This document shows positions 1,136 to 28,651 of a stretch of 64,000 bases of DNA, piece by piece. The position numbers were made by a program, and so were the translations under genes. Positions within the stretch are counted from its first letter, which is position 1. Each line of letters opens with the position of its first letter. Under the pieces are notes generated by a model. It did no database searches and was not told where the DNA came from. It was given only the letters and a program-made list of their open reading frames with translations. The DNA is from Podarcis vaucheri (Eukaryota), in assembly GCA_965113315.1 (NCBI GenBank), contig OZ220363.1, one strand, 5' to 3'.

Positions 1136-2225
1136 TACTTGACATAGATCAGGTACCTCTTACTGTTACACACTAAAAACTTGCCTGCCATTCATATAGT
1201 CATTGTGGTTAAGGATTACTTGCTTATATGGGCAGCAGCTTTGATCAGCTAATAATTCCGAATACAACTTTGGGGAGCCTAGTGGTTATTCCATGTTTCA
1301 TGTTTAGGTTTCTGAAAGCTTCTCTGTAATTGGAGAGTTGTTCCTCTTTTATGCATTTTCTTTCACATCTGAACTGTATATTAGCTGCACTTCATGATCA
1401 GAATTATGAGTAGCCCTGAGTGTGTATTTTATGCTACATTTAAAAAGAAAACAGCAGCACATCTTTTACAGATTAAAAAAGAGAATTCAGCTCTACTAGT
1501 ATTGTTTTTCAGTTCAGTAATAGAACTTACACACATGGTGTAGCCTGTCAGGTTTGATCTTGTCTTGAGATCTAACATTTTCCCTTTGCCTGAAAGCAGG
1601 CCTCCTTGGTGTATTTTCCTTGTTTACTCCTTAGGGGGGTTCTTGTTTACTCCTTGGGGCATTTTCATGTTTATAGTCCACAGCAGTCTTTGCCAGGATC
1701 CAGGATAACCGGCTGGCTTAGTGCCACAGAGCGGCAATCCTCACAGCTGCAGAGCTTTTGAGCAACCTGCCTCCTGGCTCTTTACTGAGCAAACTCTTGG
1801 TCGGCTGTTTTGCTGCCAACACGCTGGGTGGGTTTGTTGATTTTAAGAGTCCAGGTTTCATTTTCTCCTTGTATGCAGGTGGAAAGGTGGGTGGAGCAAT
1901 GATAGCAGGTGGGAGGAACTGGCTGTCCCGAGTGCAGGCCTGGAAGATTGTGATTGGGGGTGGAGAATAGAACAAGTCATTTAAGGAGGACATGGAATGA
2001 ACAAAAAAAAAAAAAAAGCAGAGGGAGATACTTAACTGGCAAAGCCAGTCTGTTGGCCAGTCATGTGATTAACATGGCTACGATCAGGGAGTGCACAGCA
2101 AGGACACACAAGGAGTCTCAGGATTTGAAGGTGGCTGCCTGAATCTCAAAGAGGGAAGTCCATAAAGGTAATTATTTCCCCTGTGCTTTTCCATTTTGTA
2201 GGATGCTGCTTGTGAATAAGCTAAA

Positions 2226-2325
2226 ATGACTGTGAAATTGCTCTCTCTTCTGCCTGTGCCATCTGTGCTCTTGGCTTTCTGCCTTGCCACAAGGAGTGAG
2301 CAGGAAAGGACAGCAGCTTTACAAG
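2226..2325 (+). CDS. SIGIRR: SIGIRR candidate signal-peptide exon ([33 protein letters not shown])
   Basis: Acceptor ccattttgtag ends at 2201. ATG at 2226 has A at -3. Basic n-region is followed by a hydrophobic stretch. Strong donor aag|gtgag is phase 1, matching the 11854 exon. Confidence 0.65.
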
Positions 2326-5300: not shown

Positions 5301-8300
5301 CTTGGGAGTTTGCTCAGCCAGTAATAGGTGTCAGTATCTTCAAAGGGATGCGGGTGGCGCTGTGGGTAAAAGCCTCAGCGCCTAGGGCTTGCCGATTGAA
5401 AGGTCGGCAGTTTGAATCCCCGCGGCAGGGTGCGCTCCCGTTGCTCGGTCCTAGCGCCTGCCAACCTAGCAGTTTGAAAGCACCCCCTGGTGCAAGTAGA
5501 TAAATAGGGACCGCTTATAAGCGGGAAGGTAAACGGCGTTTCCGTGTGCGGCTCTGGCTCGCCAGAGCAGCGATGTCACGCTGGCCATGTGACCCGGAAG
5601 TGTCTCCGGACAGCGCTGGCCCCTGGCCTCTTGAGTGAGATGGGCGCACAACCCTAGAGTCTGGCAAGACTGGCCCGTACGGGCAGGGGTACCTTTACCT
5701 TTACCTTTTTATCTTCAAGGTATGCTGTTTGTTGTGACATTTCTTTGTGTCTTCTCTGTATACTGGGAGAACCCTTGAGTGCCTCCCAGACCATTTACAG
5801 ACACATTTACACAGTTTTCTTTTCATTTAGCGCTATATTTGTGTTAGCCTTTGCAAAGGGATAGCCATGCTGACATTCACTTATAGAAACAGGACTGAAT
5901 GTGTACTCCAGTGCAAGCCTGGTTGGGACAAAATGCCAAATTGTGGTTTGTTTAAAATAAAGAAAGGAGGAAGGAAATGGATCTGTGTGGCTCATACTTA
6001 TGCTGCCAACCCATGCTTGGGCATTATGTCTGAACCAGTCCTAGGGGTCTGACAACAAATTAAAATTATTTGAGGCCATTTACACTGCACCTTAGTTTTG
6101 CTTTAACCACATTATTCTGTGCAGTTTTGCAGGGAAGCATTTTGCACAGCAGTTACTGGTTTTAAGTTTATTGTGGCAATTACATAATGAAGGAGATAAT
6201 TGATTCTCCCTTCCAGACTCTTTATGATGATGTGAAACCAGTTTACCATCTTGCAGGGATGCACGCTTTGTTGTTTGTAGGTTGAAGCCTGCCATATTTT
6301 TTAATGAAATAGGTGATGTTTAGGGTTGTTATAACTGCCCTGAGGCATTTTGCTGCCTGAGAGGGACAGGATGACTTCCCCACTCCCCTTCCATGTACAG
6401 AAGCTGACTCTGGCAACGAGACAGCATCCTTCACCACACCTGAAGGCATCAGCATGCCCAGGACAGGCCATATGGCACATAGAGTTCTGTCTTTCAACAC
6501 TTCGTTACTCCTCGCCCTAATTGGGTCATTGCCAACACGGATAGATGCTGCTGTGCAGCAGCATGTGTTGCATGGGCATGTGCTAAAGTTTCTGGACTGT
6601 GTGGCTTATGCTGGTTGCCTCTTTGCAATGCATACTTCTTCAGTCTGGGGCTTTCCTGTACTGTGACGTGTTGAAAGAAAGTGACTAGGTGAGACATATA
6701 GCCATACTAGGCCAGCAACAAGCAGGCTTACTGGCACAGGAGGGTAGAAATGGCCAGGAGACTTAGGAAGAACATCCAAGGTGGCGTCGTTACCACCTGA
6801 GACAATTGCCTCATTCTGTAATGATAGGGTTGCCCCTGCAAAAAGCAAAGGCTCTCCCTATCATTATTTGTTTAGTTAGCTGCCTGTGGCTTGGATCCTA
6901 GGCACAGTTTCTTGGAGGTACGTTTCAAAATTGGTAGGATTTACTTCCAAGTAATAAGATGCATAAAAGTGAGGTGCCAGATTACTACAGTTCTAGCAGA
7001 TGAGTTTCCTTACTCCTTAAATTAAATATATCTACTACAGTGCAGTAGGGTATTGATTATCTGATTAAGCCCTTTAACTCATCAGAAATGTGAGGAAATA
7101 GTCGATAGAGCAGAAGACTCTTTAATCTCAGTGTCATAGATTCAAGCCCCACACTGGGCAAAAAGATTACTGCATTGCAGTGGGTTGGAGTCAGCAAACT
7201 TTTTCAGCAGGGGGCCAGTCCACTGTCCCTCAGACCTTGTGGGGAGCCGGACTATATTTTTTTTGGGGGAAAGAACAAATTCCTATGCCCCACAAATAAT
7301 CCAGAGATGCATTTTAAATAAAAGGACACATTCTACTCATGTAAAAACATGCTGATTCCCAGACTGCCCACGGGCTGGATTTAGAAGGTGATTGGGCCAG
7401 ATATGGCCGGATATGGCTTAGTTTGCCTACCCTTGGAGTAGATTGTCCTTGTGCTGTCTTCCAACTCTATTGTTCTATTCTCTACTGCTGCCTAAAGTGT
7501 ACAATACTTTGGATTGATCCCAGGATTTGGGATGGTTGGTGTTGAAGGAGTGCTATATTTAAACATATGAAAGGGATGAAAGAATTACATTTTGTTTTGA
7601 AATGTAGAATAATGTAGTTAATATTGATTTGTGCAAAATACAAGGAATAGTGAATGCCAAAAAAGAAATGGAAATCTGTGTATTGGCTGAAATAGGCAAA
7701 ATATAAGAGCAGAGGAATAAATATGGGTTTAAGGGCCCCTACCTGTTAGCTGTGCTGAAGTCTTTTTAAAAAGAGCTTATGTGTGTAGTGGATAGCGGCC
7801 ATGATCTTTGATATACTTTGGGACCATAATAGCAGTATGAATAATGTAATCTTGCTTCCTGCACATTGTCTGATATACCAAATTGATATCTGAGAATCAT
7901 TTACAAAATAAAAGGGACAGGTTTTTAATCTCATAGTTGCATACTAGAAGATAGAAGGAGCTGCCTTTGTATTTTTAAGTCTAATATCCCAGTCTTGGGA
8001 TGCAGAACATACAATGCTCTATTATACATGTATATGCTTGGACAGGTAGTCTCAATTTAAAGGGATACTGTATATGTGCATTTTGAGCACACAGCATGAA
8101 ATGGATGCTTTCATGGTGTAGTGAGGAGTGGAGTGTACATTTCTCTAGAACAGATCCCTTCTCACAGACCAAGCATGCCAGGACTAAGGTCTGACTAGTG
8201 GTAGTAGTAGTGGCAGTAGTAACAGGATTAAGAATAAAGGGCTGACCTCTCAGCAAAGATTGAGTGAAAGCAGATACCATACAGGCCCCAGCATAAGCTG

Positions 8301-11300
8301 CTCCTCCTGCTCTGCCCTCTGAATGAAACAGAAGTAAAAAAGAGACTTCAGATAATTTAAACTGGAAACGATAATAATTTTTGAAGAGAGCTGAAATTTC
8401 CTTATGTGTGTGCTTCTTCTGTTTTGCTGGTCAAACATGTTTGGCAGGTTTTTAATCAATACAGAAACCTGTTTACCAGAGGTCAAAATGGAATGAGTAG
8501 TTGTCTTACTTCCAAACCAATTTTTGCTCTCCAGTCCCAGTGAATCCCATCCATTTCCTCTAGACTTCCTGCAAACACAATGAAGATTGTAGGATGTTTG
8601 AGTGAAGGGAACACACAAACATTCCTTGTAAAATAATGCAGCATAAGCAGGAGCTGAAGCAGGAAGGAGATACTGTGCAGCAAACTGCAGCCACAAAGTG
8701 CCCCTGACACAAATGATTCAATCTCTTTAGCATTTATAAATACATTGTGGAGTCAGAAATCTTTGGCGATCACTCGTAGCTGAGTAAGATCATCTTCCAT
8801 AAACACGGTTTTAACAATGAGTCCGTAAGTGACTGTCAAGGCCAATTCTGGATCCATACGGCCTTCCACAGTGGGGACATTGGTTTCCAGGCGGGAGTTG
8901 ATCACGGTGTGGATTTGCCAAGCATGCCTTCCTCTTAGCACGTTTCTCCCTTGCTTCCTGAGTTTGAATGTCTTCAAAGCCCATGACACCTTTGGTAAAA
9001 GCTGTTCTCCAACTGGAGCGCTCGCAGGCCAGTGTTTCCCAGTTGTCAGTGTTTATACTACATTTTTTTAGATTTACCTCAAGACAGTCTTTAAACCTCT
9101 TTTGTTGACCAGGAGTCAGAAATATTTGACCAGTACAACAGTGCACTGGCTTGAGTAACTTCTCAGAAAATGTGATATTCTTGTAGCAAAAGCACTACCT
9201 GTGCAAAAAGCATGAGGGATGATAGTGGAAACGGCCCTGAATTAAGCTGCATGGTAAGTGTATCCTGTTGTGACAAAATCCATTTGTAAATCAGCATTCA
9301 GTATGTGAAATATTTGTGAAAGGACCCTATGAGAATTAGCACCCTCTGAGATAAGTCTTTGGTTGCATCTTAATGCTGGGATCCATACCTGCCGTTTACT
9401 CCCTCCCACTATCTGATGGTTGGGTGTGTGCTTAACAGCTCCTGTGTGTAAGCAAAAAGAGCAGCATTTCTTTCTTCAGTTTCTTCCTGATCGGGTATGG
9501 GAATGTTTGTCTAGCAGACAAAGGCAACATATTATGCATACTTGAAGGGACCCAGCCCAGTCACAGTAAGGTGTTGTTGTTTTATTCATAGTTTATGGAT
9601 AGAAGGATGAAATAATGAAATGAAATTCTGTGGCAGTACTACTCTGGCAGTTCTTTGTAGAATAATTATGGTCATGATAGAACAGACAAGAGCAATAAAA
9701 GATGTGTAGGATTAGGCTACATGTATTCAGATGCTGAGCAGTGGGCTTTACTCCCTTGTAAGGTATAGAACTGCAATCCTATGTTACTTTTGTGTTAGCA
9801 AAAAAAGAAGCCATTCATATACGAAGCAATTCAGTTTCCACCTGGGAAATTTCATTCATATAACTTTAACAACAGCTGCAACAATGATGATAATGCCGTA
9901 ATGCTTATTTGGAGTGTTTTCAGGACAAAGCATCACAGTAGTCAGTGGCACTTTAACAACTGTGTTTGCATCTACTAAAGTTATTGCCATTTCTGCCAGA
10001 ACCATCATAGTTGTGAACAATTCATTGTATATATAGGACTGCTGTCCCACCAACAGTGAAAACCTTTGATAATGGAAGTGCTCACTTGAATATGAGTTCT
10101 CACTTGACGTTCTGCCAGCAGTGGCATTAACTTTAGTAGAGTTGCGTATTTAGGCAAGGTAAAGGTTAAGGACCCCTGGATGGTTAAGTTCAGTCAAAGG
10201 CAACTTTGGGGTGCGGTTCTCATCTTGCTTCAGGCCTAGGGAACCGGCGTTTGTCCACAGACAGCTTTCCGGGTCATGAGGTCAGCATGACTAAACCGCT
10301 TCTGGCACAATAGGACACCGTGACGAGTGCCATAGCACAGGGAACTGCCATTTACCTTCCTGCCACAGCAGTACCTAATTGTCTACTTGCACTGGTATAT
10401 TTCCGTACTGCTAGGTTGTCAGGAGCTGGAACAGAGCAATGGGAGCTCACCCCATCGCGTGGACTCAAACCGCTGACCTTCCGATTGGCAAGCCCAAGGG
10501 GCTCAGTGGTTTAGACCACAGCGCCACCTGTTCCCTATAGTTGCATATTTATGCCTACTGTTACACCAACAGTGGTAGTCAAGAACCATTGGGTGCCTCC
10601 AGAATAGTCCATCAACAGGCAACCAGAGCCCTTGAAGTTGGGTTTGAATCTCTGGTTGCTTATAGCATACAAACAACACATAAAAAGGTCTCAAATACAT
10701 AAGTTACTCTTAACTGAGAACTGCATGAGAAAATTATGTTCCATGTGCTACATCACTTGGCAAGTAGAGCGCAATGTGGAATAAATTCCCATTTAAATTT
10801 ATCTGCTAACTTGAGGGAGACTATTTTAGAACTGGTACATAGATGGTACTTAGGTCATTTAACTATCATATGTGATGGCCATGTGTGCAAAATGAATTTT
10901 ACTTGGAAGTCACCCCACACCAAAATAGTATTGATCAGTCAGACATGATTTATGCTTTGTACTTCTGGACATTTCTGAAAATGATTATTATTCTTACAAA
11001 GACTTATCAACTTTTGTTTGTAGCAGCTAAACTGGATATGTCTGAGCACTGGAAAAGATACAGAACCTCTATCTATTTCTCAATGGTATCAAATAAGGTG
11101 GAGGTTCACTGTCATGGACAAACAAGTGCATCCATTTCATGTACTTCATTGTTCCAGTTCCAGTTCATATCAAATACTAACAAGTATACAGACATGCAAC
11201 TTTTTGCTCAGCAAAATGTACTGTGTTGTACAGGTTTTTTTTGAAGGTTGATTGCTTTTCCTTTGAACTTGTAGCTCTGAAGCACTTATTATAATTATAG

Positions 11301-14300
11301 TATCTTTTTAAAAAAAAGTTTCCAGGTGTGCAAATGGCCAGTGAATACCACCAATGCTTTTTTAAAATACATTAGCAGTATTTGGTTGGCTAGGTTTCCC
11401 CCCTGTTCTTTCCTTTTTCTATAGTGCTTGCTTCAGTGCATTGCCTCTCCTAGCATTTTTGTGTGTGGTGTGTGTGTTATGAGGAGGGTTGTTGAATGTG
11501 ATCATTGTGTTAATGCCCTTATTATCAATTTGTTCTCTGTTCATTATAAATAAGGAATCTATGGCATAGATAGAGTTCTAGTTAGAATCACATAGTTAGC
11601 TGATCTTGTTATCAGGATGATAAATATTTATCTCTCTTCTCTATAGTAAATTCACTTTAAACAGTCTTTCAGGAGCCATCACATGGTATGCATATTAAAA
11701 GTAAGTTCAGCCAGGGGGGCAGTGTCTATGACCTGGTTGGGCATGAATGACTTGGTTGCTGTTGGAGTTGCGTATTCTGTGCTTGCTGTAGAAATGTAGG
11801 TTGGATTAGGCATCACAGAAGTAGTTGCAATTTAACTGCTTTGCTTTATTTAGAATTCTTTTCGCTGACGGTTTCATCTAATTTATCGTGTGTGGACCCA
11901 GATCACTTCTATGATCACACCATTTGGACCCAGCAAGAACAGGTTAATCATTTGTTCTGCCCTTTGGATAACCAGAGCCTCCAGCTTCTTCAGTCTACCT
12001 CAAACTTTAGCATCCAGTGGAGCAAAAACTGTCATCTGCTTAACTTCACCGCGTTAAGCCACCTGCACAGCACACTGCAGAACACAACAACATACCTCAC
12101 CTTTGAGCACGCAAATGCCAGCGATGCAGGCAACTATACCTGCACGCTCTACTTGAACGATCAGAGAAACAGCTCCTTCACTGTCCGGCTGGTCATGGCA
12201 GGTGAGTGAAAGAAGTGGGAATTTTCAAACATGCCTTTGGATCCCTAACCTAACACTGACGTCTCCTCTTGGGCCCATCCCAGGAGAAGCAGTACTGCTA
12301 CTGTTTCAAGATGGGCCACTTGTCTGCCTAAGTCGGGATCCTATGTTTCTCATTAGACACATAGTAGCTGTGAAGTATCTAACTATGTAGGGCATGATTT
12401 TGTCCGTTTTCACCTAAACATAAGGTACTGATCATACTCAAATAAGTTATGGCATTAGATAAGCCCTGGGGATGTGAGCCAATTTATCAAGTGCTATGAT
12501 CTAAATTATGCATTGTCAACCAGAAGTTGGCGGGTTGATGTTTGTGACTGTATGTGTGGCTGTTGCTGAAGAGGGCTTCCTTTTACCTGGGAGAAAAAGG
12601 CAGACACGGAGCTCTTTCTGAGCCCTCTCTGCATTTTATGTTATATCTAAGATGACATATAAAGGTAAAGGGACCCCTGACTGTTTGGTCCAGTCACAGA
12701 TGACTCTGAGGTTTCAGCGCTCATCTCGCTTTACTGGCCGATAGAACTGTGTAAACAGATAAACCTGACGAAGGCTTCACTGTGGTGGAGACGCAGTTTA
12801 GGAGAGAGAGAAAAGACTTAATGTTTCTAAAGCTGTGATAACAAGTGATAGTACCTAAAATGTGGTGAGAGGTACCTGAAGCTACCAAGATAAGCTCACT
12901 CCGTCCCCCATTTGCTAGTTGCATTGTCAGAGTTGAAATGGGGAAAGACAGGTTTAAAAAATATATATATGCTGAGATTAAAAAAATTAGCAGACTTGTT
13001 GGGACAGATAAGTGTGTTTTTGTCTCTGCTTAATCTTTTATAGTGCACTTAAACTAGGATGGATCATCATTTTGGAGTACTTCATTATGCTATTAGAAAC
13101 ATAAATTAGCTAAAGATGGTCAGAGGGAGATCATACGTCATTTGAGCTGAAATCCTGCACACACATCCTGAGACCTGGAAGTCAGGCTTGCTAGACACTG
13201 TAGATCTTATTTCTGAGAAGATTTGTATAGGATTGTACTCTTTAATTTTTTTTATTCATTAAGATAAGGATGGTAGTTGCTGGTTTCTCAGGAAGTTCTC
13301 CTGAACTGGCTAAGGACTGGATATGGGCTCTAAAAAGAACGTTTTTTGTATTGTTCTCCCTTTTAAATAAAGGTAAAGTTTGGAAATGAGTCCAATACAC
13401 ACAGAGGTACCTACAGAAGGGAGAGCCTTTACATTTTAAAAAATGATGGCCATGATGGCCTAGTTCTCCTTTTCAGAATTTAAGGGAATGTAAGGGAAAA
13501 GGAAATTAGGGACAAGTACCTGTGACATATTCTAGTTTTTAATGCAATGTGACATTTGCACCTTAAACACCCTATTTTCCGCAATAGGATTCAGAAAGTT
13601 CTTCATTAAAAAAACGCACGCTCACATATGCTGAAAATATTTAGCATGGATGAATGAGTTGACAGTATGAAAGACAGAGGGGGAAGAACAGCACTGTGCT
13701 GGACTCTGAACAGGCAGTGAGAATAATTAAAGTACTGGCACTAGGACTTCAAAAGTTAATAATTAATACCATATCTCATATTCAGCACTTCTGTGATGTG
13801 CATACCCCTTTATCCTGGGCATTTCTCTATTATGGGACATGACATGCTTTCCAGATAACCTGAACATTCTGTCTTTCCCACTATAGTCCTTACTGAATTT
13901 CTCATTGTTTTCTCAAGTCAAATCAGAACTGCAGAACTAGCCTTGAGAGAGAGGTTATACTCAGCAACTTGTCTAGTTAAGTCGGCGAACCCACTGTGCA
14001 AGAGAGATTGTGCTTAGGTGCAGGGTCACAGGGACAAGAGTAGCTTGACTTTCTTTGTTATGTTAGCCAGACCTAAATAGCCAATATAAGATTTGCAGTA
14101 TGCAGTCTGGAAGTTCAGTGCTCTCATTGAAAAGCTCTCTTACGGTGTACTGTTTTTGTTTTCCCAACAGATATTTGCAGTGTCCTTCCTCGTTTCCTTT
14201 ACCCCTCCAGCAATCTGACTTTGCAACGTGATTTGGGAAGCCAGTTTACACTGAACTGCACTGTGCAGCTGCCCTACACGAAAAGCTGTGATTTTGGCCT

Positions 14301-15796
14301 TTATTGGATGAAAGATGACCAGTTGCTAGACAACGAGACCTATGCTTCTTCAACTCATTGGTAAGAAGGCTTTTATGTATAATGGAAAATAAAGCTAAAT
14401 TGGCTGTATAAACTAGAAACAAAAGAGAGAGAAACAAATTAAAATAGTGTCTCCCAGACTCTGAAGATAATGGTGGATCTTTAAGGGCTTATGTATACTA
14501 TCAACCTTATAGGTTTGTGGAATAGGGGCAGTAGTGTAATATATATAGTTCATTGGGAGGAAATATCTTTGCAGTAGCAGGGGGAGATTGAGTGAGAGTG
14601 GGAGATTGTGTTTCTGTTAAAAAGAAAATTGTACACTTAAGCCCTGGAGAAGGGCTTAAGACAATGCTCTATGTATCAGTCTTCATTGGGGAGGCAGAGG
14701 GAGAGGAAGATGACCCTTTCAGATGTTTGTGGCTTCAGAACAAATATGGTTTCATGAACACCCCTTTTATTTTAGTGTTCCCACTGCAGGGGACTTGTGT
14801 TGTGTTGTACGTTATCAGTGGTGTCATGGATATGTTCTACTAGGTTACTGGGAACTCATGTAATATTTTGTACATCACTCAATAATGGCATGGAGGCTGT
14901 AGCTGGGAGAAGAAAAATTGACATTTCACTAGTAAGAAAAAATGCACTTTAAGCAATAGGACATTGCTATTATAGTTCCACAAAAGAAGTACTTTTATAT
15001 AAGACAGTGGGATCCCATACAACAACTAAGCGACCACAATTAATCCAGTGCTTTAAAAGAACAAGAAAAAAGATGATTTTGAAAGTCCCCAAATTTCTAC
15101 TAGTTTTTGTGGAAGAAAAGGTTTTCAAAGGCCAACATGATAAAATAGTGACAGTATTTCCAGATCATAGATACTCAAATGGACACTCTTGTTACCAACT
15201 CACAGTTCATTCCTTGTCCAAATTTAATGTTTGGTATAATCCAAGATTCATAGGGTGGAGCCCTCTGAGTTTCCTTCCTGTCCGGTTCTGACTGAAATTT
15301 CCTAGTGTTTGTTTTCCATCAGTGCTAACCTAAATCATCTTCTATTTGCACCCCAGGTTCAATGACAATAAATCAGAGATATTCATCTCCAGCACTTTGG
15401 ATATGAATGTAACAACAGATGAAATTTATGGAGCATTTACCTGCTTGGTTAGAAACAGTACAGCAGTTTTCACACTGCAAAAATCAGGTAGCATTTCTTT
15501 GTACTTCATACCATGTGCATTTGGGTGTGGGCCGGTACTCCATTTGAAGGTTGTTATCTTTATTAAGTTGTTCAAAAAAGATACTGCTACTCACTAACTG
15601 TATTCCATAGTAGAATTCCCATGAGTATTTCTGAAATGAGAGTTGGAGATACTTTTTTTTTAAAGAGTTGTCAGACTACTCTGAAAACACACTTATGGCA
15701 TTCAATCCAAATGTAAATTTCCCTTTCAGAGTTGACCTCTGAAAACTGATAGATAAGAATATGGCTGTGTACAGCATTGATTGGCTGATGCCTTTG

Positions 15797-15854
<58 letters not shown>

Positions 15855-18800
15855 TATCTTTGACCCCACCCCAGAGCAGTTCTGCACTTTGGTTAACAAG
15901 ATGACAAATAAACATGAATGAAATACTTTAAACTCTTTTTAATTTAATTATCTTTAGAAGGGCTTCTTATCTGAAGCTTGATGGGAGGGGCAAGTGTGAT
16001 AACTGAGCTTGCATTTGCTTTGTACATTTGTCATTAAAATGGCAGAACTAGATAAATCTGAGATTGTGCAGCAGCTGAGGAATTGAATGTGATTTATATT
16101 CTGTCTGCCTCCTCTTGAGACTCAAGTAGCCTAAGTGTTTTGGATTACATTTTCTAATTACAGTCTAGAAATCATCCATGGCTCAGCATCATTATTTCAT
16201 TTCTCCATTGGTGTATGTGAGATGCTAAGGGCCATTTCACACATTATGTGTGTGTCTTGGAATGGAACAGTGTGTGTGTGTAAAAGAAACTACATCCTTG
16301 GGTCCAATGTACAGGATTCAGTATGGTCTATTGAGGATGTGGGTAGCATGGAATCTGGTCAGAGTTTGACCCACAGTGAGTTTATAGAGGTGTGACAGCT
16401 TCACTATACATTCAGTTTATAATTCAGTCCACATTTTTCACTTTGTAGTGCCACTGTTCAGATGACTCTTGGCATGTATGCAAAGGCAAATGTGTTTTTT
16501 GGGGGAAGAAACATAGTTTTGAACTAAGATGGCTTCAAAATTCTGAAGTATTGTATGACCCTCTGAGAATTTATGAAGTGGGTATCTCAGCTTGGCTTTC
16601 CTTCTTTTAGGAAGAAGCAAGACTTAATTTTCTATATAGAAACTAACTGTTCTCATTTAAAAAATATAGTAATTTACTTTAGCCCATGCATGGCCATCTG
16701 ATAGACTGAAGTCTAGCTGGGGTGATAAGAGTATTTGCTTTTATGCTGTATCTAGATGCCTTCCTTTTCTTTTGAATAGGTTTCCCCAGTTTTATCTTGG
16801 AATTCAAGAAACTCAGCTGAGCCTGCCTGATCCTCTTCTTAGACTTTAAAAGATGTTTTTGCTCTAGCTGGTAGTAGGGTTTCTAAAAAGGGCTTTGAAC
16901 CAGACTTAACATGTCTCTAGAGGAGTTTAATATAAAGACAGCCTTTTGTGCCCTCAGTATTGCTCCATGCTGGCTTTAGGGTCTCAGTTTACAAGAGCAA
17001 TTTTATGATGGCGTCATCAGTGAATCTGATGGCAGAAAATTGCCACATGATGGCACCAGCAGACAATAGAAACTTTTCTGAGGTTTTCAATCAGTCACAG
17101 CCTCAAATGGTTCTACACACCAAAACAAACGTGCTATCAGGCTGCCCCCAAGCAACTCAGCTGTTTTGGCATGCTTGAACACTTTCAAATTCCTCCATCT
17201 GGAAGTTTCCATAGGCTGATGGAGCAATTCTGAGATTAGAGCCTCAGTGTATTTTAAAGCAACATTCAGCAAATGGCTACAAAAAGTCTAAATGAACTTG
17301 CCCGCATGCTTGCAGGAAGAAATTGAATTGGCACTGGAGAATGTGAATAATTTAGTTCATGCACATCTTTACTCTGAAAACCTTTGATTTACTTCTGCAT
17401 GTGCATCTTGTGAATGGAGATCCTTGCAAAATTTGGAGGATGATCTAACAATGTGGTGCTAGAATAAATCTGTCTTTTAGCTTCTGCTCATCTCTTCCTC
17501 ATCATGGTTGCACGTTCTGATAGTCAGAACAGTCATCAAGATACTAAAAATTGTTCAAGAATGACATAACCCCTCATTTTCTTTATAATTTGGTATATTC
17601 TGAGACCATAGACCCCAACTCTTCTCTTCCTTTTTTCTCTGCCATCCTATCAATTGTAAGGCTGTTTTCTCATTTAATGCTATTTAAAATATGTCTTTCT
17701 ATTACAGCAGAGACTGCTGGGCACTTGGGCGCTGTGCTAGCTGCACTTGTCACGGTGGCACTGCTGTTACTAATGGCTGTGATGTATGTGAAGTGCCGTC
17801 TGAATGTGCTCCTCTGGTACAGAAACCGTCATGGAGAGGTGGAGATCAATGGTAAATATTGGGCTGGAGAGTTGGCTGTCACTTTTCCCCTTGTGAGATT
17901 CGAGTTTCAATGACAGTCCAACCCAAAGTGTGAACTTCTACAAGAATTATCCTCTCAGTGTTATAGCTAGTCAGCACAGGTTTTGTTGTTGTTGTTGTTT
18001 TAAAAATTATAATAAATTTCTCCTCTTGGTACTTTTCCACAGATGGAAAGCTGTATGATGCCTATGTGTCTTATTCTAACTCAACGGATGATAGAAAGTT
18101 TGTCAACTTCATAGTGAAGCCACAGCTGGAGAATCGTCATGGCTACAAGATTTTCCTGGATGATAAAGACATCCTGCCCAATTCAGGTATAGAACCTTGT
18201 CCAACACCTCATTTAATATGTACCTGGGCACTCAGACTTGCTGTTGAGTTCAGGCTGCAAATAACTTATCTGAAATGGATTAGTTGGCTAAATGAAGAGA
18301 AACCTTCAGTTTAATTTGCCCATTTGGCATCCTATGTTTAATATGGTAGCTTTATTAAGTGTTAAAATATCCAATTGATATTGGTACACACACTAAGTCT
18401 GAATATCAGGTTAACTCTTGCATCCATTTTCAAACAAGAGGAGGAGAATGCAAAAAACACTATTTCTATTAGACACTGAGACAGCAGGATGAAAGTTGGT
18501 ATGCAACTTTCCCTGAAAGTTGCCCTGAACATTCTGCATTTCAAGTACAGCTTAATCCATGTCCCTGTTTCCAAGGTAGATTGGAAAGATGTAAAACATA
18601 GTGCAGTGCTATATCTGACTGAGATATTAGAATACAGGCTGGTGTATACATTCAGGACACCATTGTGCATTTCATATATGATCCCAGCTTGACATCTGTA
18701 TCCTTTTTCAGAGTGAAGGAAAGGGCCACAAACATTGCAATGCAGTACATTGGTACCTCGGGTTACATACGCTTCAGGTTACAGACTCCGCTAACCCAGA

Positions 18801-21800
18801 AATAGTACCTTGGGTTAAAAACTTTGCTTCAGGATGAGAACAGAAATCGCGCAGCAGCAGCAGGAAGCCCCATTAGCTAAAGTGGTGCTTCAGGTTAAGA
18901 ACAGTTTCAGGTTAAGAACGGACCTCCGGAACGAATTAAGTACTTAACCCGAGGTACCACTGTATCTGAAATGAAGCCTGTTGAACGCTGCACTTTGCTA
19001 TTTAATAGATGCAAAAGTATGGCTCTGAAAAATTACTTTGGCACACTATTTTGTGCCTCTAAAGCAACCTAAAATACCTTTAATTCTAAACACCAATAAT
19101 GGCAAAACTGCAAAGTAAGAACTGACAGGCTCTCTGTTGTACGAAGAAAAATGTATTCTCCTTAACCACCCAGTTGTCCACAGTTAGGTTCCATTTGCAT
19201 ATTAAGTAGGATGTATTCACAGTCTGCCCAGTATATGCTCAGCACAACTGGTGGGCTTTCTACACCTGTTCAAAGTCTGTGGCATGATGCATTGCTTAAC
19301 TTGCATGACCTTGCAGATATGCATTTCATAGAGATGGGTGGTTGTTTTGTGCTGGCCTGCTGCCTCTCCCTGTGCCTCCACATTTCCAGGCTGTTATTGC
19401 ATATGTTTGACAATGTGTTTCTTTATTTTGGGCACAGCTTGTTTAATCTTCCTCCAAAGAGCATGAAGTGTAGTTCCTATCCAGGCAGTTTACAGGCCCA
19501 CCCCTGTTCTGGCTTCCGCAATATCACTGTAATCATGTGCCTTCAGACCATTTGTTCTTATCTTCAACTGTTTTGTTTAATAAAACTTCTATAAAAAGTA
19601 TGCAGCATCCATTTGCATGGGGATGCAAAACAAGCTGTGTACAAAATGCAGCTCCTCCATATTCTATAATGCTGCCCACAGTGGACAGTTCTGGTTAAAC
19701 AAGAATACACCACAAAACAGCATTTCTCAGCAGCTGTATTACCTTTTTGAGTGTATAGTACTATGGAAACGGCATCTGTATTGTGCTCTTTGTGGTATGT
19801 CTAATAATTAAAAAATGCAATGTTTGAGTATACTCTTCATTTTTTTTTTATGTCCTGAGTGTTCCACCAGAGGCACTCATATCCAAAACCAATGGTGCTG
19901 TCTGAAGGACAGGGAAGTTCTAAACAGGCTGGTTAGTTTTTATTCCATTGCCCAGGGGTTCTCCTTTCTGTAGAGCAGAGCGGATATGAATTTGGATGCT
20001 AGGGTATTTCTTTCTTGTACAGGGGAAGGATGAATGCTGAAACAACAATGGATTGGTTCTGGCCCTTTTCAGAAGAGATTTAGTTTTTCTCCTCTCTTTC
20101 AGAACCTTCTGCAGATCTGATTATGAATGTCAGCCGGTGCCGCCGCCTCATTGTGGTTCTCTCTAATGCATATCTGGAACAGGAATGGTGCAACAATAAT
20201 TTCAGGTAATTAGAGCGTCAGCAATAGAGACAAGTTCTCTGATCCTCCTTTCGTTTTTGGAGGATCAGGAATGACTCGGGCAAATAGTATGTGCAATTCT
20301 GATTTGGAGGGATCACTAAAATCATAGTTTGCTTATTTGGTTGTCCTGGTGAACTATGGCTTGTCAAAATAGTCAAGTGTTCCAATAAGTTGTACTCATA
20401 AGAGGAGGAGGGAAGGTAGAAGGGAGTAGGAAGGCAGGTGGGAGTATCTTCCTGGCTCTCCTATCTATGGTTAGAAGAGCATCTGAATTTATCCAATTTC
20501 TGTATACACCTCCAATCACAACACCCAGAATCTCTCTCATATTTCTGGAAATGAAGCACAGCAGTTTAGTGTTAATGCCTCTCAAACCAGTTCCTGAAGT
20601 TTTCATTGAACTGTTTGAATTCTACTGAAACTAGTCGTGCTTAGAATTAATTTTTTGGGTGACTAGATTGGGTTTCAATAATTTGGTTGTGGATTTGCTT
20701 AGGACTCTAACCGATTGTCTGGTTTTGCAGGGAAGGTCTTTGGAGGCTGCTGGAACTATCCCGGAGGCCAATCTTCATTGTCTTTGAGAGCCAGTACCGA
20801 GAAATAGCACATCCAGCCATAAATTTGCTGAAGCAGCAGAAGAGCACAGTGACCCTTCTGATGTGGCGTGCTGGGTCCATGGTAAGTTGTGGGCTGCAAG
20901 GCCATAACTTCATCACTGTGGTTTTGTTTCTCAGTGGCAAGGCAGTACTTGAAGCTATTCAAGAAGCATAGAAGTGTAGAGTAGCTTCTCTTCCAAGAAG
21001 GGTTGAGAGCCAATCCTCCATCACTTGACCTTGCTGTGATGTATACCAGAGTAATAACTGTTACCTGCTTTTCTTGGCACTAAAGAGTAGCATCTTCATG
21101 AAAGTAGGTTGAGTATATTTTTGTCTGTCCGTAATTTTGATCATGATCTCCTGTTATTTACTTTTTTATTTTAGCTATTTACCTGTTGACTAGGAAATCA
21201 TCAGCTCCAGAGATTTGCCAAATGATACCTTTTTAGATGAACATGGCTTGACTGCTCCATGGCTCATGCGTGGAGGTCATGAGCAGTGTTGTAAGCATTG
21301 CAGAAAATATAGATAAGTTATATTTTAACTCCAACTTTAAAGAAGCAAACAGAGCCACAGGGAGGCACCAGAACCTGAGAAATAAGAATTGGAAACATAT
21401 ACTTTGCTTCACCCAGAGTACTCTCAGTGCAAAGAGAATTGAAAAGAATGGAGAAGGAAAAAAGCACAAAAACTTCCCTAAAATGAGCATTTGCAGGGGA
21501 GCATTCTAGCAGGATAGAGACTTCTGGTTTACAGTTATTGCTGTTTCTTTATCTGTGCTAAATGAACAATAGCATGCTTGTGACTCACAATACTCCTTGC
21601 AGTTGCACATCAGGATATTTAGTTATTTTATTATGCTTTTCACCCACCCTTCACCTCACGGTCCCAGGGCAGGTTACAACAATTAGAAAAACTACTGACA
21701 TGACACATGTGTGTGTATTTTTAAAGAACCGGACCCATCATTTTTTGTAAGTCTGGTATAATGCAAAACTTGTACCTCGTATAAATATTTAAATACATAA

Positions 21801-24800: not shown

Positions 24801-27404
24801 AATAGCAAGCTTGGGAAAGCTATCTGTGCGAGGCATTGAAGCATTGCAGTCTGTTTCTGAGTTTTTGCTGGATACCAGCCACATGTTCTCTTGCCTTTTA
24901 TCCATGAGGACAAAGCCAAAAGCCTTATTTTAAAAAAAAGAAGAAGAAAAGAATTCACTCAATTTAAAATTGCACTGAAATCCTAGGTTAATGGAAAGGC
25001 GAAATCTGTTGCTTTATCTGGTCACGAAAGCCTTCCATCAGAAGTAATGCCACTTAATACCTCTTAGATTTTGCAGTACGTTTCATCTCGAAGATGAAAC
25101 AAAGCTGAATGGGAAAACTGTTGGTGGGGCTGTAGATCCCTCTGTTGTAGCGAACATTTATCTCTCTCTGCTCAATCCTTTGGGAGCCAGACAGGGTGCC
25201 TGTGCTTCATAGGCGAGGAGCGCCGGTGAGAACGCTGCCCTCAAGGCAGGGCTGCTGGGACTTGCCTACAGATATATCGCACAAGGGTTTGTGTGTAACT
25301 GATGAGCATGTGACAAGATGCTGCCTCTTTACTGCTTCTAGGCGCCTTCATCTGATTTTTGGAAGGAACTGTGCCTCGCCCTGCCACGAAAAGTGTCCTA
25401 TCAAGGCCTCAGGGGAGACCCCCAGACCAGTTTCCAGGAAGACAAGGACCCTATGCTGATCCTCAACAGCAATTACTTGGATTTCCGGGGGGATTCGCAC
25501 CCTGAAGGAGACTCTGGTAACAGCACTGTTTAATCTTCACTCTGTCGCCATAGCATGCCAACAGGAGAACACACAGTTGCTCTTGATCCTGCTCTGTGTT
25601 TTTTGTTTTTTTGAGTGTTAGTCCACAGTTAGCCAGAAAGATTCTCAAGTGAGGCTCACAATTAAGTTTGAAAGAAAAAACCCCATTAAAAAATCACTTG
25701 ATAGAAGAACACTGCACTTGCTAAAATTAGCAAAAGTATAGCCCAGCAGATTTATTAATCAGTCAGCCAGGTGCCTTTCTACACACTGCCATGAGCTAAC
25801 TGTGTGCTTCCTGCCTGTATTATTACAGCTATTTTAGTATGGTATGCCAAAACCCTATGTACACTTACTTTAACGTAAGTTCCATTGAACTCAATCCTTT
25901 AGAGTGGATATGTGTAGGATCAGGCCTCACTTTTGATTACAAAAGCTAAGGCTAGTCAGATGGTAACCGCCCCCCCTCCCCGAATTAAAGATGCTTTGGA
26001 ATATGTGATCAAATTGTGCTATGTATTCTCATCTTAGTTTCACCTCTAGGAAATAGGTTTCTTCTTTATTTCAGAATTATCAAAACCTGTTCAGCCAAAG
26101 GTGACAGTGGAGACCAATGGAAGTGAAGCCTCTGCTCCCACTTTCAGATTCCTTAAAATTTATTTTCTCCAATTTAAGCCTGTGTAGTGTAGTCAGATCA
26201 CAAGCAGTAGTATTTATTTAAGGCCTTTATATACCATCTGACTTGGCAGAATGTGTCTACTTTGGTTGATCACCAGGCTTGGTCACCATTGTATGCTGTG
26301 TCTGTGGCTTCCAAATGGCATAACAGGTCTTCCTCTTTCTTTCTTTCTTTCTTTCTTTCCTTCCTTCCTTCCTTCCTTCCTTCCTTCCTTCCTTCCTTCC
26401 TTCCTTCCTTCCAATGGCCATTCCAGAGTTACACCTAATTAGCTGATCCTTCATCAGTCAAACAACCATTACCTCAATCCAAATGAAATGATCTTCCCTG
26501 TCATGCAGCAGTCCACACATACATACTGTGGCACATTTTGTAGCAGAAGAATTAATTCATCTGTTTTTCCCATTCACTGCTAACATTGGATAGGGAGCAG
26601 GGCAACATGTTTTCATAGAGAACATGTTATTTTGGCTATGAATCCATTTGTGTGTTTGCAGAGGAAGAAAGGAAATAATGGTGTCGTTATCACTACATGC
26701 TTCCTTAGAGTAGCAATACCAAGGAGTGGAAATTTACGTAATTTACCACCTCCATCTATCATTTACGTGCAAACATACCCAAGAGTTCATAAAAGAAATG
26801 GGTTTTATATCCACCAAAGGGCAGTTTTCCATTCTCGGAGCCCGAGACTACAGAGAGCTTGGTGGTTTAGTCCTGACATCCTTTTTCCTAGGCCTGTGGG
26901 ACTATGGCTGTACAATGGATCAATGAGTAGGAAGCGCACCTGAGGCATCGGTTCCAGAGGTTGTGAAGAACAAGCTCTGGCCCTAGGGATTTGTTAACAC
27001 AGGCTGAGCACTTGCAAAGCAATACATTTTAATTTTAGTAACAGGAGCAAAATAAGTTCAGTGGTCATAAAAGATTTACGAGCAACTGGCAAGAGCAAGC
27101 CCAGCTCGCTTGTACACGGTGATTTTATTGTCAAGAGAAGAACAGAGAAAATAATGGGTTTGGCTGGGCTTTTCTTTTAGTTGAGACAGCAGCGTTGGGC
27201 TTATTTTGCTGAGGGTGTTGCGTTCACTGTCATTAATAGGCCTTGTTTCTTGTGTGGCGCGGCTGTGCACCTTGTTGGAAGCTTTCCTCATTAGTCTAGT
27301 TGCTCCATACAACAGCATGCCAGGATGCTTGAGGCTCCTCATTCTCTCACTTGCAAAGGGAATTGTTGCTTGGAAGACATTTCATTCTCACTAGGAGCGC
27401 CTGA

Positions 27405-27444
<40 letters not shown>

Positions 27445-28651
27445 CCTGCTTGAGAGAAAGTGATGCACATCAAATGTATTTCATGAGGCTTACAAAGGTG
27501 TTACCGGTTTCTCTTCCCAGCTCCCCTCCTGAGGTCTTTGAAATGCTGCCTGTTAGTGCTAAGGGGAAGAGCAGCTCCTCTCAGACCCTGGGGATTGGCG
27601 AAAGGCGGGACTGAAGCCTCCTCCAGATTCCCTAGGTGTTGAAATATTCAGGCCCCTTACTCTTGTCTGACATGTCAAGGCATGCTCTAAAATAAAACAT
27701 TTAAATTAAGTTTAAAACTGCCAACTGACTCCCAAGCTGCATGAGATGCAGGAGGTCTATAATTAGATCTCCTGACATTTCTGCTTTTAGTTAAAAGTAG
27801 CCAGAGGCTCCAGCTTTGATTAGAGCAGTGACCCTGAGCCTCAGGCCTGAGGAAAAAAAATTTGAACTCTATTTCCCTGTGCCATTACCCCAATCTGTAC
27901 TGTCTCCTAGTTATAGATCTCCTGCATCTCACGCAACTTGATACTTAAATTGGTTTAATAGTTCTTCCTTCTCTCCGGCTAGCCTTAGCAACTAGTTCTT
28001 TGAGGAAGGATAGCAATCTCACTGAAGTACTATTCGCAGAAATGTTGGTGGGAAGCAATGATACTTAAACTGGTGTTTAAATGAGCTTGAACTGTATATA
28101 TGTCCTCCTTGTAAATACAGTGGTACCTCGGATTAAGTACTTAATTCCTTTCGGAGGTCCGTTCTTAACCTGAAACTGTTCTAAACCTGAAGCACCACTT
28201 TAGCTAATGGGGTCTCCTGCTGCTGCTGCGCCTCCGGAGTACGATTTCTGTTCTCAGCCTGAAGCAAAGTTCTTAACCCGAGGTAATATTTCTGGGTTAA
28301 CGGAGTCTGTAACCTGAAGTGTCTGTAACCCGAGGTACCACTGTACTTGCAGAAAGTATAGTGGCACCAGTCATTTTAAAGCACTGCAACTTGTCTCATT
28401 CTGCCTTGCCATCCCTTCCTCTCTGCTAACTGCTACCTTCTCCTTCCCATCCTACAGGTGGCAGGGGGTCCATTTTCAAAGGCGCACCGCCTCCTCCCAT
28501 TAGTGGCCCTGATGGTCCTCCACTTGGTGCTTTGGAAGAAATACAGCTTGGGGAAAACCAAAGGAGCGAGATTGACATCTCTGATTTGGGATCTCGGAAC
28601 TATGGAGCAAGGACAGATTTCTACTGCCTGGTGACAGAGGATGATATCTAA
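2226..28651 (+). CDS. SIGIRR: SIGIRR/IL-1R8 gene model, 10 coding exons: 2226-2325, 11854-12201, 14171-14360, 15357-15487, 17708-17851, 18043-18186, 20103-20205, 20731-20881, 25342-25516, 28458-28651 (1680 nt, 559 aa). Domains: signal peptide, two Ig, TM, TIR, long C-tail
   Basis: All introns are GT-AG with matching phases. The translation matches human SIGIRR motifs [69 protein letters not shown] and [17 protein letters not shown]. Convergent to PKP3 as in human. The first two exons are less certain than the last eight. Confidence 0.93.
2785..2857 (+). repeat. Perfect 35-bp tandem duplication
   Basis: gcctcattgaattccattttcccatgacacacatt occurs twice in tandem. Confidence 0.95.
5345..5709 (+). 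mobile_element. Sauria SINE, full length
   Basis: Head gggatgcgggtggcgctgtggg, tail (acctttt)n, TSD tatcttcaa. Near-identical to the 34264 copy. Confidence 0.9.
7093..7482 (+). mobile_element. tRNA-derived SINE with CR1-type tail, interrupted by a hAT MITE (about 7189-7433)
   Basis: tRNA-like head (gactctttaatctcag...ttcaagcccc) and tail cttccaactctattgttctattct. The insert is homologous to 51465-51849. Confidence 0.7.
8752..9113 (-). mobile_element. RTE-clade LINE, 5'-truncated 3' end
   Basis: [27 protein letters not shown]...CPHCGR..SRIGL.SHLRTH is the typical RTE C-terminus with a C2H2 motif. Confidence 0.85.
10156..10535 (-). mobile_element. Sauria SINE (older subfamily)
   Basis: aaggtaaagg tail at the left and ccacagcgccacc head at the right; degenerate ~18-bp TSD (agttgcRtattta). 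Confidence 0.85.
11854..12201 (+). CDS. SIGIRR: SIGIRR extra N-terminal Ig-domain exon (IL-1R D2-like)
   Basis: Bounded by tttatttag|aa and gca g|gtgagt; 348 nt, phase 1-1, no stops. Ig signature C..LFCP..QWSKNC..LTF...SDAGNYTC, with 8 N-glycosylation sequons. Confidence 0.88.
12661..12740 (-). mobile_element. Sauria SINE 3' fragment
   Basis: aaaggtaaagggacccctgac...gcgctcatctcgctttactggccga. Confidence 0.75.
14171..14360 (+). CDS. SIGIRR: SIGIRR canonical Ig domain, first half ([31 protein letters not shown]...YWMKDD)
   Basis: cccaacag acceptor and tg|gtaag donor. Aligns to human GVCDRAPDFLSPS...LGSSVALNCT...QWLKDG. Confidence 0.92.
15357..15487 (+). CDS. SIGIRR: SIGIRR canonical Ig domain, second half ([29 protein letters not shown])
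   Basis: ccccag acceptor and tca g|gtagc donor. Matches human SEVLVSSVLGVNVTSTEVYGAFTC. Confidence 0.93.
15800..15854. repeat. (CT)n(CA)n microsatellite
   Basis: Read directly from the sequence. Confidence 0.95.
17708..17851 (+). CDS. SIGIRR: SIGIRR transmembrane exon
   Basis: Translates as [43 protein letters not shown]. The tandem CAGCAG acceptor allows a start at 17708 or 17711. Confidence 0.95.
18043..18186 (+). CDS. SIGIRR: SIGIRR TIR exon 1
   Basis: Translates as [48 protein letters not shown], with canonical splice sites. Confidence 0.96.
18748..18962. mobile_element. TcMar/pogo-type MITE (CAGTGGTACCTC TIR family), copy 1 of 5
   Basis: TA TSD and TIRs; internal sequence shared with the four other copies. 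Confidence 0.88.
20103..20205 (+). CDS. SIGIRR: SIGIRR TIR exon 2
   Basis: Translates as [35 protein letters not shown], with canonical splice sites. Confidence 0.96.
20731..20881 (+). CDS. SIGIRR: SIGIRR TIR exon 3
   Basis: Translates as [50 protein letters not shown]; donor atg|gtaagt. Confidence 0.96.
22560..23020 (+). mobile_element. Old LINE reverse-transcriptase fragment
   Basis: Degenerate [14 protein letters not shown] and FVDFKTAFD motifs. Confidence 0.65.
24590..24718. mobile_element. Short hAT MITE
   Basis: TIRs caggcttcctcaaact / agtttgaggaaacctg; 8-bp TSD gcttactg. Confidence 0.88.
25342..25516 (+). CDS. SIGIRR: SIGIRR TIR end / C-tail exon
   Basis: Translates as [58 protein letters not shown]. 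Confidence 0.96.
26333..26412. repeat. (TTTC)n(TTCC)n microsatellite
   Basis: Read directly from the sequence. Confidence 0.95.
27410..27441. repeat. (CA)n microsatellite
   Basis: Read directly from the sequence. Confidence 0.95.
27733..27940. mobile_element. MITE-like element with ~33-bp terminal inverted repeats
   Basis: aagctgcatgagatgcaggaggtctataattag pairs with ctagttatagatctcctgcatctcacgcaactt, with about 4 mismatches. Confidence 0.65.
28118..28343. mobile_element. TcMar/pogo-type MITE, copy 2 of 5
   Basis: ta|cagtggtacctcgg ... cgaggtaccactg|ta. Confidence 0.88.
28458..28651 (+). CDS. SIGIRR: SIGIRR terminal coding exon
   Basis: Translates as [13 protein letters not shown]...[29 protein letters not shown]; long pyrimidine tract before cctacag. 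Confidence 0.96.

Follow-up and report, generated by a model that had tools for sequence, protein, structure and literature searches.

SIGIRR (IL-1R8, TIR8) is an inhibitor of IL-1R/TLR signalling and a co-receptor for IL-37. The original paper on DIGIRR is reportedly that of Gu in 2011. According to the available portions of PMC9448908 and PMC4837151, mammalian SIGIRR has one Ig domain and no signal peptide, and the former adds that the position of the SIGIRR Cys is still Ser in DIGIRR. DIGIRR, found in teleosts and sturgeon, is presented in the accessible text of several sources as a transitional or fish-specific molecule (PMC9448908, PMC3705552, PMC4837151, PMC9020223, PMC7144542, PMC3482685), and its localisation in fish is given as Golgi or cytoplasmic (PMC3705552, PMC9448908, in the parts available). 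Reviews, as far as their accessible text goes, treat DIGIRR as a fish-only step in a single line leading from three-Ig receptors to SIGIRR, the history of which is described as little known (PMC3482685, PMC3705552, PMC9020223). Two-Ig reptile forms have no mention in the accessible parts of PMC5861070, PMC12108812, PMC4090809 and PMC12315662, and no paper on a two-Ig reptile SIGIRR, or on the junction Met described below, was found in the literature covered, ie outside the subscription journals.

The window, a stretch of 64,000 nucleotides of Podarcis vaucheri contig OZ220363.1 (assembly GCA_965113315.1), carries a gene whose protein matches the 559-aa Lacerta agilis SIGIRR X1 of RefSeq, at 99% over the extra Ig exon. 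Its TIR sites were defined from the available portions of PMC9448908 and PMC4837151 and were located by visual comparison with proteins of bat and sturgeon; they comprise the Cys (exon 20103-20205) and Ala-Leu (exon at 25342) of SIGIRR, followed by a long C-terminal tail that runs to 28648. By sequence, tree and neighbours the gene is the ortholog of mammalian SIGIRR. The long form has two Ig domains and an N-terminal signal peptide, as does a DIGIRR, and the single Ig domain of SIGIRR is found only in the predicted short form. Nor does the gene lack a signal peptide, the signal exon being present and spliced in, with other transcripts that skip it. At the first TIR site the lizard has Cys and the sturgeon has the Ser of DIGIRR, so that the lizard gene combines orthology to SIGIRR with the ectodomain of a DIGIRR and strictly belongs to neither class. 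Anoctamin exons lie on the same strand 13-20 kb upstream of the window (L003:99-7251), and anoctamin likewise appears in a fused sturgeon model; we take the upstream gene to be ANO9. On the minus strand, exons at 37541-40341 belong to a plakophilin-like gene (plakophilin 1 match, E 7.6e-04) that converges on SIGIRR and is presumably PKP3, from human synteny.

Eight exons joined by their coordinates give 437 codons without a stop (Table 1). The long frame runs from ATG 2226 in the signal exon through the extra Ig exon and six downstream exons, and two further exons finish the gene. The signal exon is a 100% match to residues 1-33 of protein P0001, the signal of which has a hydrophobic core of 2.64. 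The start given for the untranslated exon is the point where the contigs begin, beside a skipped A-run, and its true 5' end may differ. The extra Ig exon is coding in the long mRNA and leader in the mRNA from which the signal exon is skipped. It is single-copy in the genome, scores above the cut-off with Pfam Ig_2 (E 7.9e-07), and in the predicted structure forms the strands of a beta-sandwich at a pLDDT of about 70-80. For the predicted ectodomain (pLDDT about 70-88) the best fold matches are the IL1RAPL1 and IL-1R ectodomains; the mean pLDDT of the TIR part is 58.5, and structural readings are drawn from the ectodomain only. Pfam searches with three downstream ORFs gave no match.

Table 1. 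Positions of SIGIRR features in the window.
Feature	Position	Strand	Remarks
Upstream untranslated exon	2031..2167	+	contig pieces, GT..AG joint to 11854 in X1, X5; donor GT at 2168
22-codon upstream ORF, strong context	2074..2142	+	closes within untranslated exon
Signal-peptide exon, skippable	2202..2325	+	ATG 2226 (A at -3, A at +4), 33 codons + 1 nt
8-codon out-of-frame upstream ORF	2203..2229	+	TGA overlaps start ATG 2226
Extra (membrane-distal) Ig exon	11854..12201	+	348 nt, phase 1 at both ends
13-codon out-of-frame ORF in Ig exon	12115..12156	+	stop is also the end of the frameshifted turtle-like ORF
Junction Met codon	12195..12197	+	residue 148 of long form, Met1 of predicted short form
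Splice donor GTGAGT	12202..12207	+	phase 1, inside codon 3 of short form; X4 and X1 contigs run on into exon at 14171
Retained membrane-proximal Ig domain, first half	14171..14360	+	
Retained Ig domain, second half	15357..15487	+	
Transmembrane exon	17708..17851	+	
TIR exon 1	18043..18186	+	
TIR exon 2	20103..20205	+	carries SIGIRR-type Cys
TIR exon 3	20731..20881	+	
TIR end and tail exon	25342..25515	+	approximate, tblastn bounds
Last coding exon	28448..28648	+	approximate, tblastn bounds

The extra Ig exon starts longer in lacertids than in other squamates (window 11854-11872). Models from Zootoca and Lacerta agilis (P0126, P0127) have an additional acceptor 18 nt further in; the corresponding site here reads GG and not AG (11870-11871), and so looks lost. 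A third acceptor, at 11900-11901, is compatible with a Zootoca model. High-copy interspersed repeats occupy the introns at about 5340-5710, 7100-7480, 8760-9240, 10150-10540 and 12650-12745, and are heavily covered by RNA reads originating elsewhere in the genome.

The preliminary description had pointed to an in-frame Met in strong Kozak context 7 nt before the donor of the extra Ig exon, and the window sequence and the frame of the exon confirm it. Positions 12192-12207 read GTC ATG GCA G followed by GTGAGT. The ATG at 12195 shares its frame with exon 11854-12201, has G at both -3 and +4, and precedes the donor GT at 12202 by 7 nt. The residue it encodes, Met148, is the sole strong-context Met among the seven internal ones with scorable context. 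In the predicted model it ends the strand of residues 137-150, the last strand of the outer Ig domain, and falls on the inward-facing alternation of that strand. A protein begun there would therefore retain an intact inner domain.

The start given for human SIGIRR is borne out by database proteins P0457 and P0502. The proposed alignment of the lizard Met with human Met1 holds as well, a Met in the same register, four residues before a conserved Cys, being present in 88 of 120 mammal-type matches, opossum and human included. In SIGIRR of mammals, birds, turtles and advanced snakes, Met1 aligns with the lizard Met free of gaps. Turtle, bird and colubroid/viperid snake models of 410-418 aa begin at the same Met (49 of 108 sauropsid rows; the other 59, which have no Met in register and are mostly partial bird models from residue 3 or the intron end, were left uncounted). 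Twenty-two alternative or intron-reading mammalian models, hand-picked as 19 of the 32 'other' rows and three more, differ at residues 1 and 2 and have Gly (20), Arg (one) or Cys (one) at residue 3. These are all N-G-N codons, which places a phase-1 intron in codon 3 of mammalian SIGIRR, as deduced from the models and not from mammalian DNA. Two musk-deer models depart from the gene after residue 3. The first human coding exon had been described as contributing only ATG-CCA-G, in agreement with this break, and the exon-end and phase context, in which a difference between mammals and lizard had been allowed for, is the same in both. There is thus very little doubt that the Met and its intron are orthologous between the lizard and the short SIGIRRs. 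The human gene has 10 exons (PMC3482685, in the part available), which would be accounted for by a leader exon, the ATG exon and the eight further exons that follow in the lizard.

The Met might, on the preliminary description, have proved absent from other sauropsids; it is conserved there and beyond. All 52 database proteins with the domain-end motif have it (squamates, crocodilians, sturgeons and two turtle relics), in a set made up in large part of isoforms or close kin. A search with the outer domain gave 14 SIGIRR-type matches, every one with the Met: 10 named squamates, one further, gharial and two sturgeons. In a 17-row alignment Met occupies the position in all 15 long forms from squamates, crocodilians and sturgeon/paddlefish, and Val in goby and lamprey. 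On the sequences compared, the conservation of the Met in long forms is not chance. Being common to sturgeons and tetrapods, it dates back at least to the split between them and is not a mammalian feature. The polarity first proposed, that of a mammalian-type start preserved in a lizard, is therefore reversed, the Met far predating mammals. Its strong context does vary: only 42 of the 52 proteins imply G at +4, and the Thr or Ile of crocodilians implies A there. Purine at -3 (implied in 42 of 52, open in 10) was set aside because transition bias predicts the same.

That the locus could make both a long and a short form had also been suggested, and at the mRNA level signal-bearing and signal-less splices do occur in related lacertids, from which the eight runs come. 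The skip joint 2167-11854, which leaves out the signal exon, is present in X1 and X5 (two of eight runs, from two studies and two organisms). The inclusion joint 2325-11854 is present in X4 (one of eight, from a third organism), which also joins 12201 to 14171. RNA status of the runs is a guess, but the joints of X4 and X5 are GT..AG and so belong to spliced transcripts. In none of the eight runs are both joints covered by 31 nt to either side; X2, with contigs of both upstream exons that each extend only 16 letters beyond, was not counted. Two further sources were rejected: an X12 contig, which begins in the intron at 11761 and cannot show a start site, and the raw-read runs X21, X23 and X24, in which the mean depth over exon bins was at most 1.4 and the joints were dominated by repeats, making them unsuitable for ratios or start sites. 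Among the joints listed there was no splice from the signal exon to the inner domain. No CpG island of an internal promoter was found outside repeats between 2326 and 12195, and none that was clear in the 20 kb upstream.

In Podarcis lilfordi, Python, Paroedura and Alligator the database models include both short and long forms. Crocodilian models of 530 aa (P0152-P0155, P0160) have two Ig domains and no signal peptide, and are a possible third form. The donor of the leader exon is separated from the acceptor of the signal exon by 34 nt (2168-2201). This is too short for a usual intron, and the two may be alternative first exons, mutually exclusive exons, or a single run-through exon.

In the skipped mRNA five ATGs lie ahead of 12195, at 2063, 2074, 11911, 12115 and 12124, one of them in strong context, and the last of the five upstream ORFs ends 39 nt before it. 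Since all five close before 12195, it is the first ATG to open the long frame. Productive initiation at 12195 in lizards is only slightly more likely than not. In the long mRNA, the ORF at 2203-2229 might act as a brake on the long form or as a switch for reinitiation.

We consider it likely that lacertid SIGIRR keeps the ancestral two-Ig, signal-bearing form, and that the Met at 12195 is a built-in second start which later became the sole start in several tetrapod lines. On the signal-skipped mRNA, ribosomes would reach 12195 past the five short ORFs by leaky scanning or reinitiation, and the product would be a leaderless one-Ig receptor, inserted via its transmembrane helix in the way that mammalian SIGIRR has to be. 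With the short form already working, the outer-domain exon would have been free to decay into leader, retaining its last 7 nt and the donor. The lines in which this would have happened independently are amphibians (caecilian), mammals, turtles, birds and caenophidian snakes; of these, turtles would represent an early stage, with a frameshift only, caecilian and birds a later one, and mammals a stage past recognition.

Alternatively, the Met could be no more than the hydrophobic end of an Ig G strand, with the skipped mRNAs of lizards being noise, and the lineages that lost the outer domain could have fallen back on the nearest in-frame Met with no prior short form. The inward-facing position of Met148 suits such a role, and invariance of this degree is unexceptional, since 12 of 44 aliphatic-majority columns of the ectodomain are equally invariant. 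Val, however, serves in goby and lamprey, yet no change from Met to Val, Leu or Ile is seen among the 52 proteins, in which the other Met-majority column (196) varies. The five upstream ORFs of the skipped mRNA and the weaker context in crocodilians speak for this alternative; against it, the skip joint is the path obtained by assembly from two organisms, each in a different study. A turtle-like frameshift, moreover, would be null unless a downstream start had worked beforehand. This alternative is unlikely.

In turtles the proposed decay of the outer-domain exon can be seen under way. ORF P0297 (128 aa; near twin P0515) begins with a signal peptide and runs halfway through the outer domain before it goes out of frame, stopping at the point that corresponds to the end of the lizard ORF 12115-12156. 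It agrees with Emys at 22 of 24 residues and with crocodilians or lizards at 14 of 24. Its tail, read one frame over, is codon-compatible with the relic peptides of Emys at 44/45, Gopherus at 59/61 and Chelydra at 53/56 informative bases, against shuffle maxima of 0.72-0.77. Compared with gharial, P0297 is 7 bases short, ie there is a frameshift before the Met. With its signal and broken Ig, it indicates that turtles appear to transcribe the signal and outer-domain exons still, but in a broken state.

The preliminary description had proposed a comparison of the mammalian ATG exon with the Ig exon in search of relic codons. Such relics were recovered in turtles and the caecilian; in mammals a peptide proxy brought none to light. 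The relic test was anchored at the ATG and made at the nucleotide level on back-translated upstream peptides, with 300 shuffles and with back-translated gharial and the lizard DNA as references. It was positive in five of five turtles and in the one caecilian, Microcaecilia (p=0.003, both references), and in none of six negative controls. The signal in birds was weak, with four of six at p<0.02 against back-translated gharial (three pigeons) and one of six against lizard DNA. A bird relic in Pelecanus, obtained from a three-frame peptide comparison (p=0.003, about 40 frame tests), was dropped when the anchored test did not repeat it. N-terminally extended mammalian models, used as the peptide proxy, gave none in 12. 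With no mammalian relic detectable, decay in mammals is argued from position, phase and analogy only; the mammalian ATG exon probably decayed in place from the Ig exon.

The same result would be given if the Met and donor of mammals were orthologous and new or inserted sequence, together with a new acceptor, had taken the place of the rest of the ATG exon, and the mammalian exon upstream of the Met is shorter, at about 53 apparent codons against 107-114 in the lizard. A relic subject to neutral decay with GC drift for more than 160 million years would be just as invisible, however, and the test was of back-translated peptides and not of DNA, with birds already near the limit of detection. A human gene of leader, ATG exon and the same eight exons, as would follow from the exon count in the accessible part of PMC3482685, likewise argues against replacement, which we regard as improbable.

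A tree of 40 chosen proteins, built from the shared part only, recovers one family and a single SIGIRR clade with species-like branching. The long form of lamprey makes two Ig domains the ancestral condition. On this tree the Met-started short forms need four changes, in the caecilian, mammals, turtles plus birds (an open node) and advanced snakes, the loss in snakes and amphibians being taken from annotation; the starred branches force only three. Crocodilians are the sister group of birds, and on the accepted species tree their position raises the number of losses to five. Single-Ig SIGIRR accordingly did not have the mammal-specific origin first envisaged, the event having been repeated in several tetrapod lines. 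The matches listed included no monotreme, shark or lungfish protein and no named frog protein. That the repeated losses are partly annotation bias, with long forms left unmodelled in colubroid snakes, amphibians or birds, is improbable. In its favour, Heteronotia and Lerista have only short models where their close kin have long ones, and the outer-domain search, limited by its word matching, failed to find teleost DIGIRR. Against it, the colubroid/viperid models listed are all of 416 aa or less against 552 aa in boa and python, the same search matched python and no colubroid, the turtle frameshift is physical, and what lies upstream in the caecilian is a relic peptide in a degraded state.

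The widest reading of these data is that the bony-vertebrate ancestor had a dual-use SIGIRR, giving a two-Ig receptor and a leaderless one-Ig receptor from a selected Met, that lizards and crocodilians still make both, that at least five tetrapod lines dropped the long form via the same Met, and that the human 5'-UTR exon is an Ig fossil. Taken as a whole, this could as readily prove wrong as right. If it is true, the retention of the outer domain for more than 400 million years (sturgeon, lizards, crocodilians) would hint at a ligand or partner, now lost, of the orphan receptor. The picture of an ancestral two-Ig gene that survives in reptiles and was repeatedly lost through one pre-existing start, with turtles as the intermediate, would replace the single-line account of the reviews, and it would explain the missing signal peptide of mammalian SIGIRR. 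An animal with both forms on the same TIR domain would also allow a comparison of outer-domain binding and of the route by which a leaderless Ig domain reaches the surface.

An internal start combined with an exon turned leader is a known class of mechanism, and the long forms were already present, unremarked, in automated models. The lizard gene resembles DIGIRR in its signal peptide, two Ig domains, transmembrane helix, TIR domain and long tail. Its outer domain is 51% identical to that of sturgeon, the cluster of which includes a protein named DIGIRR, and both have anoctamin upstream. It differs in that DIGIRR is described as fish-specific (PMC7144542, in the part available), whereas the present form occurs in lizard and crocodilians; in that the lizard TIR domain has Cys and not Ser; and in that the SIGIRR locus of lacertids also yields a signal-less mRNA. 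With mammalian and avian SIGIRR it shares orthology, the Met register and intron phase, the TIR Cys and a plakophilin-like neighbour downstream, but mammalian SIGIRR has one Ig domain and no signal peptide, and the lizard gene retains both extra parts. The fish forms with a signal and one Ig domain (a paddlefish 436-aa paralog, a salmonid-like model and hagfish) are likewise left with one Ig, but in these the phase 1-1 outer exon has been dropped and the signal kept and joined to the inner domain. The truncated IL-1RI transcript 'IL-1R3', made from an internal promoter according to the accessible text of PMC4090809, is a further case in which one locus of the IL-1 receptor family also gives a shortened receptor; in SIGIRR, by contrast, the shortening would come about through skipping of the signal exon, and has repeatedly been fixed as the only form.
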